A stretch of 352 nucleotides of DNA from Escherichia coli (GTDB taxonomy: Bacteria; Pseudomonadota; Gammaproteobacteria; Enterobacterales; Enterobacteriaceae), in assembly GCF_003334255.1 (NCBI RefSeq), contig NZ_QOWU01000256.1; one strand, given 5' to 3'. Both the position numbers and the translations under genes were made by a program. The notes beneath the pieces are model-generated. The model searched no databases and was not told where the DNA came from. It was given only the letters and a program-made list of their open reading frames with translations. This document shows positions 13 to 335 of this stretch, in pieces (position 1 is the stretch's first letter; the number at the start of each line of letters is the position of its first letter).

Positions 13-153
13 CTACTGCTTACACTGTAAGAACGCCGCAAACTCCGCTCCCCACAAATTCAGCCGGAACTCACACAACGAGCCGTGTAACATCCAGATG
101 GTGAAGATTACCGTCATACAAATTGTGACGGTGATGAGCGATTTTTGCGACAT
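13..153 (-). CDS. hok: Hok/Gef-family type I toxin, small inner-membrane protein, 46 aa (HokA-like)
   Basis: Minus-strand ATG at 153..151 and TAG stop at 15..13. An in-frame TAG lies 10 codons upstream (183..181) with no other start between, so the start is unambiguous. AGGAG Shine-Dalgarno (plus 163..167) sits 9 nt upstream of the ATG. Translation: MSQKSLITVTICMTVIFTIWMLHGSLCEFRLNLWGAEFAAFLQCKQ. Short polar N-terminus (MSQK), an ~18-residue hydrophobic segment, then a tail with the SLCE and AAFL.CK motifs characteristic of Hok/Gef proteins. Family assignment is from recalled HokA/HokE sequences, not a database search. Symbol is family-level only; the paralog is not assigned. Confidence 0.85.
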   Translation of the reverse strand: MSQKSLITVTICMTVIFTIWMLHGSLCEFRLNLWGAEFAAFLQCKQ

Positions 154-256
154 AACGCTTGTCTCCTGAGTGGAGAGGCGCTAACCTACTACTTGTGAAG
201 GTTGTACGGTCAGGGCCTCGGGTTAACATTAAAGTTGACTCGGGGCCTTTCCACAT
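71..256 (-). CDS. mok: mok-like overlapping reading frame (61 aa), probable translational-coupling ORF, not an independent protein
   Basis: The ORF from the supplied track (MWKGPESTLMLTRGPDRTTFTSSRLAPLHSGDKRYVAKIAHHRHNL...). It starts 103 nt upstream of the hok ATG, runs across the hok Shine-Dalgarno and start, and ends at TGA 73..71 inside hok in a different frame. This is the arrangement known for mok in plasmid R1 hok/sok. Its His/Arg/Thr-rich sequence has no recognisable fold. Start is uncertain: a GAAGG lies only 4 nt before the ATG at 256, and an alternative in-frame ATG exists at 229..227. Confidence 0.45.
   Translation of the reverse strand: MWKGPESTLMLTRGPDRTTFTSSRLAPLHSGDKRYVAKIAHHRHNLYDGNLHHLDVTRLVV
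159..187 (+). promoter_or_regulatory. Candidate sigma70 promoter for a Sok-like antisense RNA
   Basis: Plus strand: -35-like TTGTCT (159..164), 17-nt spacer (165..181), -10-like TAACCT (182..187) with T at position 1, A at 2 and T at 6. Predicted start around 191..195. The -35 overlaps the hok Shine-Dalgarno region on the opposite strand, as I recall for the Sok promoter in R1. Hexamers are moderate matches only. Confidence 0.4.
163..167 (-). promoter_or_regulatory. Shine-Dalgarno (ribosome-binding site) of hok
   Basis: Minus-strand AGGAG (plus-strand ctcct at 163..167) with a 9-nt spacer to the hok ATG at 153. Confidence 0.6.
194..252 (+). ncRNA. sok: Candidate Sok-like cis-encoded antisense RNA (type I antitoxin), about 57-60 nt
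   Basis: Lies between the candidate promoter (159..187) and a stem-loop plus TTT (214..250). Predicted architecture is a roughly 20-nt unstructured 5' tail (194..213) followed by a single 3' hairpin. It is fully complementary to the mok/hok mRNA from 4 nt downstream of the mok ATG to about 60 nt further on. Size and layout resemble Sok of plasmid R1 (about 64 nt). Ends are approximate. Confidence 0.4.
214..252 (+). terminator. Stem-loop with short U-run; putative intrinsic terminator and structural domain of the antisense RNA
   Basis: Plus-strand 214..227 (GGCCTCGGGTTAAC) pairs with 234..247 (GTTGACTCGGGGCC): 14 bp, 11 Watson-Crick plus 3 G-U wobbles (218/243, 221/240, 224/237), 6-nt loop ATTAAA (228..233), followed by TTTCC (248..252). 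On the minus-strand transcript the three wobbles become A-C mismatches. The U-run is only 3 nt, so termination efficiency is uncertain. Confidence 0.35.
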
Positions 257-306
257 CAGGCCTTCAGGTTCTCCCTCCAGCCATCAGCCGAAAGGCACCC
301 GCGCAT

Positions 307-335
307 AATCTACGATTTTTGCCCTGCACGGGCAA
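307..335 (-). promoter_or_regulatory. Candidate promoter for the mok/hok mRNA
   Basis: Minus strand: -35-like TTGCCC (revcomp of plus 330..335), 17-nt spacer, -10-like TAGATT (revcomp of plus 307..312). Predicted start near plus 300, giving an mRNA beginning GGGUGCCUUUCGGC... about 44 nt upstream of the mok ATG. Weak hexamers; the true promoter could lie beyond the right edge. Confidence 0.3.

Follow-up and report, generated by a model that had tools for sequence, protein, structure and literature searches.

Why should an inverted repeat fold tightly in the RNA of one DNA strand and only loosely in the RNA of the other? A 352-nucleotide (nt) stretch of Escherichia coli DNA (contig NZ_QOWU01000256.1 of assembly GCF_003334255.1), called the window below, raises this question through a 14-base-pair (bp) hairpin at 214-247, opposite a small toxin gene. 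The window represents a type I toxin-antitoxin locus of the hok/sok type, from Shiga toxin (Stx)-converting and lambdoid E. coli prophages. The hairpin is very probably the 3' stem-loop, a putative terminator and stabiliser, of a Sok-type antisense antitoxin RNA. The best-supported account of its asymmetry is that it serves two overlapping RNAs, Sok on the plus strand and the hok mRNA on the minus strand, with selection on both transcripts. The features of the locus are collected in Table 1.

RNA folding turns the plus strand of 214-252 into a single hairpin, in which a 5' arm at 214-227 (GGCCUCGGGUUAAC) pairs with a 3' arm at 234-247 (GUUGACUCGGGGCC) across the loop AUUAAA (228-233). Three of the 14 pairs are G-U (U218-G243, G221-U240 and U224-G237). 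The stem can be extended to 16 bp through A212-U249 and G213-U248, and UUU lies directly 3' of the 14-bp stem at 248-250. In the minus-strand RNA, A-C mismatches occupy all three G-U sites; folding thereby bears out the 14-bp repeat with three strand-dependent sites that a sequence-only reading of this DNA had described. The predicted energy is -24.5 kcal/mol for the plus strand (z = -6.7; as stable in 0 of 200 dinucleotide shuffles) and -12.1 kcal/mol for the minus strand (z = -2.6; 4 of 200). The same reading had proposed folding both strands of 190-255, where the stabilities are again about two-fold apart (plus -29.4 vs minus -14.7 kcal/mol), as they are in every homologue; over 160-260 the values are -48.6 and -35.3 kcal/mol, respectively. 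A covariance model gives the plus-strand hairpin 66.6 bits and its minus-strand counterpart 15 bits. Base composition was considered as the cause of the asymmetry and rejected, as no local G/T bias is found on the plus strand around the hairpin. Chance has next to no probability as an explanation. Nothing speaks for it beyond the small size of the window, whereas the best 39-nt hairpin on either strand of the window reaches -25.8 kcal/mol and the best hairpins of 200 whole-window dinucleotide shuffles average -16.0 kcal/mol (standard deviation 2.5), none equalling the observed value. Together with the local shuffles and conservation in hundreds of loci, this effectively refutes a chance hairpin.

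The repeat might instead act as DNA, serving as a protein-binding site, a recombination site or a cruciform, and an inverted repeat within a mobile element would suit such a role. As DNA, however, its arms are complementary at only 11 of 14 positions, with a longest exact run of 4 bp, and a repeat finder scanning the window did not pick up the hairpin as an inverted repeat. With DNA parameters the two strands fold only weakly, at -9.1 and -3.8 kcal/mol, the minus strand (z = -0.8) being no better than shuffled sequence. Homologues, moreover, keep the RNA pairing, wobbles included, and not a palindrome. A DNA-level function is scarcely credible on these grounds, and the earlier claim of an RNA structure rather than a DNA palindrome stands.

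Judged by sequence, the hairpin and the 3' stem-loops of SokC, SokB and R1 Sok are positional homologues. All three of these RNAs are antisense to hok, and the homology supports the proposal, already made from the letters, of an antisense RNA opposite the toxin. The toxin itself is a Hok/Gef open reading frame (ORF) that matches Pfam PF01848 (Hok/Gef) with E = 4.7e-8 and is labelled Hok/Gef family protein in RefSeq; in NCBIfam it comes closest to the HokA equivalog, whose cutoff of 89 bits it misses with a score of 38. Rfam RF01794 ("sok") aligns end to end with minus-strand positions 300 to 142 (35.8 bits, E = 1.1e-6). At the level of sequence and structure, a cis-encoded antisense Sok with a free tail and a stem-loop can be recognised. 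Its promoter, transcript ends, expression and mode of repression are what we infer. The predicted Sok RNA would be a plus-strand transcript of about 56-58 nt, starting near 195 and ending at about 250-252. The sokB region and the promoter region of R1, as positional homologues, served to place its promoter, and its start at G195 was set by analogy with sokB, where the -10 box is followed by 7 nt and then G. In the fold of 195-252, nucleotides 1-13 are free and a 16-bp hairpin follows; the folded hok leader presents a target hairpin with a loop complementary to these 13 nucleotides.

The elements of this predicted RNA differ in conservation. The -10 hexamer TAACCT is invariant in 42 unique homologous leaders, in which positions 248-256 have a conservation of 0.99. 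The TTT that had been noted after the hairpin is present as UUU and forms part of a UUUCC that is invariant in homologous leaders. The arms of the outer stem and the -10 box reach 0.93-1.0, the Sok tail and hok target loop (195-211) 0.78 and the hairpin loop (228-233) 0.59. Variable tails and loops, combined with multiple copies, may diversify Sok specificity among paralogues; one related locus (L056) carries a tandem pair of hok/sok copies (24-130 and 490-603) with differing tails. Set against an intrinsic terminator, with its GC-rich stem and about five or more Us, the stem here is very strong and is followed by only three Us; the U-tract of annotated SokB is likewise interrupted. Annotated SokC and SokB end 8-11 nt past the homologous stem, and we infer the exact Sok 3' end here likewise from sequence. 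A strong GC-rich stem followed by Us could also be the intrinsic terminator or processing signal of some other plus-strand transcript. However, no plus-strand gene lies upstream, and the annotated neighbour genes are all on the minus strand, so the hairpin does not terminate a protein-coding gene. It also keeps a fixed distance to hok and moves with hok into plasmids and different prophages. Such a role is very unlikely.

Homologues show what has been kept in the Sok hairpin. The 88 related loci yield 13 distinct hairpin sequences, several with different inner stems and with insertions or deletions. On the Sok strand these variants fold at -11.7 to -24.3 kcal/mol, 12 of them at -17.9 to -24.3 kcal/mol and the weakest being a divergent copy (L061); on the hok strand the range is -6.9 to -14.1 kcal/mol. 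G-U pairs number 1-3 per variant on the Sok strand and are absent from the hok strand. The same asymmetry is found in SokC, SokB, R1 Sok, a plasmid copy from E. marmotae and a divergent phage copy, which brings the range across homologues and annotated Sok RNAs to 1-4 G-U pairs on the Sok strand and again none on the hok strand. When 24 distinct hairpins were aligned to a covariance model built from 16 of them, 80 cells on the Sok strand were G-U or U-G and 0 were A-C or C-A. Wobble pairs occur in at least one sequence in 10 of the 16 paired columns and A-C in none (p ~0.002, two-sided; a rough value, with columns treated as independent). One-sided changes among the homologues (U-G to C-G; G-U to G-C or A-U) all preserve Sok pairing.

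The opposite strand carries a structure of its own. In the predicted full-length hok mRNA (357 nt, sequence from the related locus L001; z = -6.0), the fold contains a tac-fbi pairing together with a mirror image of the Sok stem, in which C243-A218, A240-C221 and C237-A224 are A-C mismatches. The long-range pairing joins GGGUGCC (300-294) to the fbi sequence GGCACCC; in L001 this box sits downstream of hok, at a place past the window's left end. When the leader alone (300 to 142) is folded, the mirror hairpin is gone, and a stem of tac with ucb and one of GAGGC with GCCUC take its place. In this open form, tac pairs with ucb (251-242), the stem consisting of GGG-UGCCUUUC with GAAAGGCCCC, and inside the GAGGC/dcb stem sits the Sok-target hairpin, with the loop CCUUCAC as the complement of the Sok 5' end. 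The alignment to RF01794 starts where tac starts, and the tac region is listed as an inverted repeat together with its partner. Both the long-range tac/fbi pairing and the change from a closed ucb/Shine-Dalgarno (SD) stem to open tac/ucb and SD/dcb stems, which characterise hok/sok systems, are thus found in silico, and the change corresponds to the switch between closed and open forms reported for R1 (PMC9841398).

Mutational data from R1 bear on the mismatches in this mirror stem. The R1 substitutions A106G and C74T each turn an A-C mismatch into a Watson-Crick pair; toxicity is lost, and the mRNA is locked in its closed form (PMC9841398). The C243-A218 mismatch of the window, which is U218-G243 in Sok, is homologous to R1 C74-A106, with the numbering checked against the verified R1 sequence. 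Because the R1 counterpart mismatch is needed for toxicity, the weak mirror hairpin on the minus strand would, by analogy, be functional in its own right. The sequence-only reading had attributed the wobble pairs to selection on the plus-strand RNA. The wobbles are indeed kept, but selection would not be on the plus strand alone, as the mirror stem in the hok mRNA would be selected too.

A further expected component, an overlapping mok frame coupled to hok, is not conserved in this subfamily. The window does contain a 61-codon ORF that overlaps hok, but it was rejected as a conserved mok. In 76 of 84 related loci, the frame that opens at the same conserved AUG (256-254) stops after 8-24 codons, and it reaches hok in only 8 of the 84. 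Unlike R1, hokC and hokB, in which a mok start codon follows GAGG, no start codon occurs there. The conserved AUG has GAAGG 4-5 nt upstream and lies only 4 nt past the 3' end predicted for Sok. The HokA-like phage subfamily could represent a mok-less hok/sok variant, in which Sok, rather than blocking a coupled leader frame, could act directly on the RNA switch, on mRNA stability or through the short leader ORF of variable length that opens at this AUG; this suggestion is a tentative one, and the odds are against it. If true, the strictly one-directional G-U/A-C pattern would exemplify a general design rule for overlapping sense and antisense RNAs, with one DNA hairpin giving two tuned stabilities. 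In missing a conserved mok, the subfamily departs from the textbook model. None of these findings upsets the established picture of hok/sok.

Several observations weigh against assigning the hairpin to a Sok RNA that has been kept by selection. Double-sided covariation is weak and limited to two pairs. In a MAFFT alignment, the covariation was equalled in 242 of 500 shuffles. In the model-fitted alignment, the number of double-sided pairs was equalled in 468 of 500; cell-based covariation measures were equalled in 6-7 of 500, which is marginal support. The consensus from RNAalifold retained only the invariant outer stem, and this nearly invariant stem is uninformative, its conservation being confounded by the needs of the hok mRNA. 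A generic terminator scan of both strands (at least 5 T in 8 bases) gave no match, the U-tract being only 3 nt long. A generic promoter scan of both strands of the window flagged no Sok promoter, and the -10 hexamer fits the consensus at 3 of 6 positions. The RF01794 score lies below the gathering threshold of 59 bits. At the chromosomal hokA locus (L099, O145:H28, 490-562), which belongs to the closest named toxin family, the hairpin on the Sok side folds poorly (-14.2 kcal/mol, z = -1.7) and escapes the covariance model. The preprint 10.1101/2025.08.07.668861 cites Gerdes and co-workers as having judged chromosomal hok loci inactive. Finally, with no conserved mok, the R1 mechanism of repression through a Sok block on mok translation is not simply transferable.

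As the generic scans were negative, the assignments of the Sok promoter and terminator are drawn from homology. Homologous substitutions preserve plus-strand pairing, with no A-C pair on the Sok strand; as the strands also differ in stability, neither of the two refuting outcomes named beforehand on which folding and homologues bear was observed. Classical double-sided covariation is weak; support for selection on the RNA comes from the one-directional wobble pattern and homology rather than from double-sided covariation. The weak hokA hairpin fits the earlier view of degenerate chromosomal hok loci and contributes little as a data point. The hokA locus retains the -10 hexamer TAACCT.

The element might, alternatively, work only in the hok mRNA as a closed-state stem, the plus-strand hairpin being a by-product or relic and no functional Sok being made. 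The mirror hairpin in the predicted full-length mRNA, the functional R1 counterpart, a Sok promoter and U-tract that are weak by consensus and the reported inactivity of chromosomal hok loci all accord with this possibility. Under it, however, nothing would hold the mismatches as G-U on the Sok strand, since transversions, C-U or A-A would weaken the hok stem equally; yet G-U cells are numerous and A-C cells absent across lineages with different inner stems. The invariant -10 hexamer and UUUCC tail would also be left without a reason. It would be difficult for more than 1500 genomes to keep an intact toxin gene without its antitoxin, and in R1 a chromosomal hok is lethal without Sok. A role in the hok mRNA alone is consequently unlikely, and a Sok stem-loop that shares its DNA with a hok mRNA switch remains the preferred reading.

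How might one hairpin serve both transcripts? By analogy with R1, the Sok 5' tail of about 13 nt would start pairing at the loop of the hok target hairpin, and pairing would then spread. RNase III would cut the resulting Sok-hok duplex, as judged from R1 and hokW-sokW, and no Hok would be made. The strong terminal hairpin in Sok would terminate and protect a short, unstable RNA while leaving its tail free. In the hok mRNA, the mirror stem would keep the full-length molecule closed and untranslatable; after 3' processing it would melt, with tac displacing it and pairing with ucb. G-U pairs in Sok and A-C mismatches in the hok mRNA would thereby provide a strong antitoxin hairpin and a switchable toxin-mRNA stem from one DNA sequence. 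G-U on one strand with A-C on the other is the only type of imperfection that achieves both stabilities. The asymmetry thus illustrates how two overlapping transcripts can share an inverted repeat at different stabilities, in agreement with the R1 mutational data.

Table 1. Coordinates of the features recognised in the window (positions count from its first letter; + and - denote the two strands).
Feature	Position	Strand	Details	Basis
Sok stem-loop	214..247	+	14 bp	Folds; homology to SokC, SokB and R1 Sok; covariance model
Predicted Sok promoter	159..187	+	-35 TTGTCT 159-164; 17-nt spacer; -10 TAACCT 182-187	
Predicted Sok 5' tail	195..213	+	Single-stranded recognition region (GUGAAGGUUGUAC...)	Fold; complementarity; spacing
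Short U-tract UUUCC	248..252	+	Predicted Sok 3' end region	Sequence; conservation; SokC/SokB analogy
hok toxin ORF	13..153	-	46 amino acids; Hok/Gef family, HokA-like	ORF list; Pfam; NCBIfam; RefSeq
mok-like ORF overlapping hok	71..256	-	61 codons	ORF list; not conserved in the subfamily
Mirror hairpin	214..247	-	ucb/anti-SD arm and GAGG arm; closed-state element	Full-length fold; R1 homology
hok mRNA 5' end / tac	290..300	-	GGGUGCCUUUC	RF01794 start at 300; inverted repeat; folds
GAGGC/dcb stem	175..219	-	GAGGC 219-215; GCCUC 179-175	Leader fold; Rfam consensus structure
Predicted hok promoter	307..335	-	-35 TTGCCC 335-330; 17-nt spacer; -10 TAGATT 312-307; 6 nt upstream of G300	

The locus is widespread. 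The window matches E. coli prophage DNA at 99.4% identity; that copy is located immediately downstream of lom, amid phage genes of the minus strand. Copies occur in 1551 of 5426 complete E. coli genomes (~29%), with up to 7 per genome, in 198 phage records, mostly of Stx2a-converting phages, and on some plasmids; related copies are found in Salmonella, E. albertii and Citrobacter. RefSeq annotates the toxin alone at this locus, leaving the predicted Sok RNA unannotated in the records inspected. An unannotated putative antitoxin RNA is thus placed in a toxin locus of more than a quarter of complete E. coli genomes and of most Stx2a-converting phages in the phage collection searched. A full-text literature search for the peptide and hairpin sequence strings returned no matching paper. 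Enrichment of hok genes in prophages has been reported (10.1101/2025.08.07.668861). Three loci on short contigs filed under unrelated taxa, namely a Xanthomonas pisi contig of 857 nt (L003) and metagenome-assembled genomes of a Planococcaceae (L005) and a Collinsella (L006), carry hok loci with proteins 74-100% identical to this E. coli prophage Hok; these copies are probably contamination or mis-binning of those assemblies.

Some copies are incomplete. An E. albertii plasmid copy (L092, 408-520) has decayed, with hok truncated and the Sok hairpin destroyed. In another locus (L020), unrelated sequence replaces the region upstream of ucb; tac and the hok promoter are missing, and the Sok side is intact. 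The predicted hok promoter of the window comes from a reading of the sequence and fell under the threshold of the promoter scan. Just before it, on the minus strand of 334-352 and beyond (L001 4334-4365), CCCGC-tgtgatg-GCGGG is followed by TTTTTT; this is likely the intrinsic terminator of the upstream lom gene (Ail/Lom). An exact 10-nt direct repeat, CGATTTTTGC, whose copies lie 174 nt apart at 139-148 (the opening codons of hok) and 313-322 (the spacer of the hok promoter), is probably due to chance.

How does the locus compare with established systems? The K-12 loci hokC/sokC and hokB/sokB were compared with RefSeq annotation, and the R1 hok/sok sequence was verified at 100% identity in many plasmids. 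RefSeq places SokC and SokB (b4413, b4429) on the strand opposite to hok; in each, a short 5' stretch leads into a stem-loop of the form GGCCUCGG...CGGGGC, and a U-rich tail closes the RNA. They match the window hairpin in position, orientation and distance relative to hok and in the outer stem, and they share its G-U pairs at positions 5 and 8 of the stem; four G-U pairs are present on the Sok strand of each, with none on the hok strand. They differ in the inner stem and loop, in the annotated mokC and mokB and in their toxins, which are of the HokC and HokB types, in contrast to the 46-residue HokA-like toxin of the window. R1 (parB) Sok, likewise a cis-antisense RNA of the hok leader, consists of an unpaired 5' tail, a single long stem-loop and a U-rich end. 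Its outer stem is identical (GCCUCG...CGGGGC), and the U-G pair opposite the GAGG adenine is shared. In R1, three G-U pairs occur on the Sok strand (-23.0 kcal/mol) and 0 on the hok strand (-11.4 kcal/mol), and the tac/fbi/ucb/dcb logic is common to both loci. In contrast to the window, however, the R1 stem is 17 bp long and its inner half differs, and a mok start codon lies 7 nt past GAGG, so that Sok blocks mok translation. R1 is also plasmid-borne with an experimentally mapped Sok, whereas the window locus is phage-borne and its Sok is predicted from sequence.

Two further comparisons place the locus within the family. The hokW-sokW module of the Sakai Stx2 prophage Sp5 encodes a sokW antitoxin RNA that is expressed from its own promoter and is partly RNase III- and Hfq-dependent (PMC8621323). 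It is, like the present locus, a hok/sok module in an Stx2 prophage, but identity with it was rejected, because HokW is a HokC-like protein of 51 amino acids (MKQQKAM..., primer YO-357) and represents a different paralogue with a different leader. The Rfam family RF01794, "sok antitoxin (CssrC)", includes the homologous hairpin in its end-to-end alignment to the window, although the score is sub-threshold and the family describes the toxin leader and not the Sok RNA. It is modelled on the toxin-mRNA strand, opposite to RefSeq sokC and sokB in K-12, and ends at the hok AUG; the K-12 leaders of hokC and hokB score 118 and 110 bits (L089 402-554 and L091 567-718, respectively), against the 35.8 bits of the window. 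Because the family is built on the hok strand, pipelines using RF01794 would put "sok" on the wrong strand. The hok/sok paradigm and the hokW-sokW prophage system are already known, and the locus described here is a further member of hok/sok, HokA-like and phage-borne.

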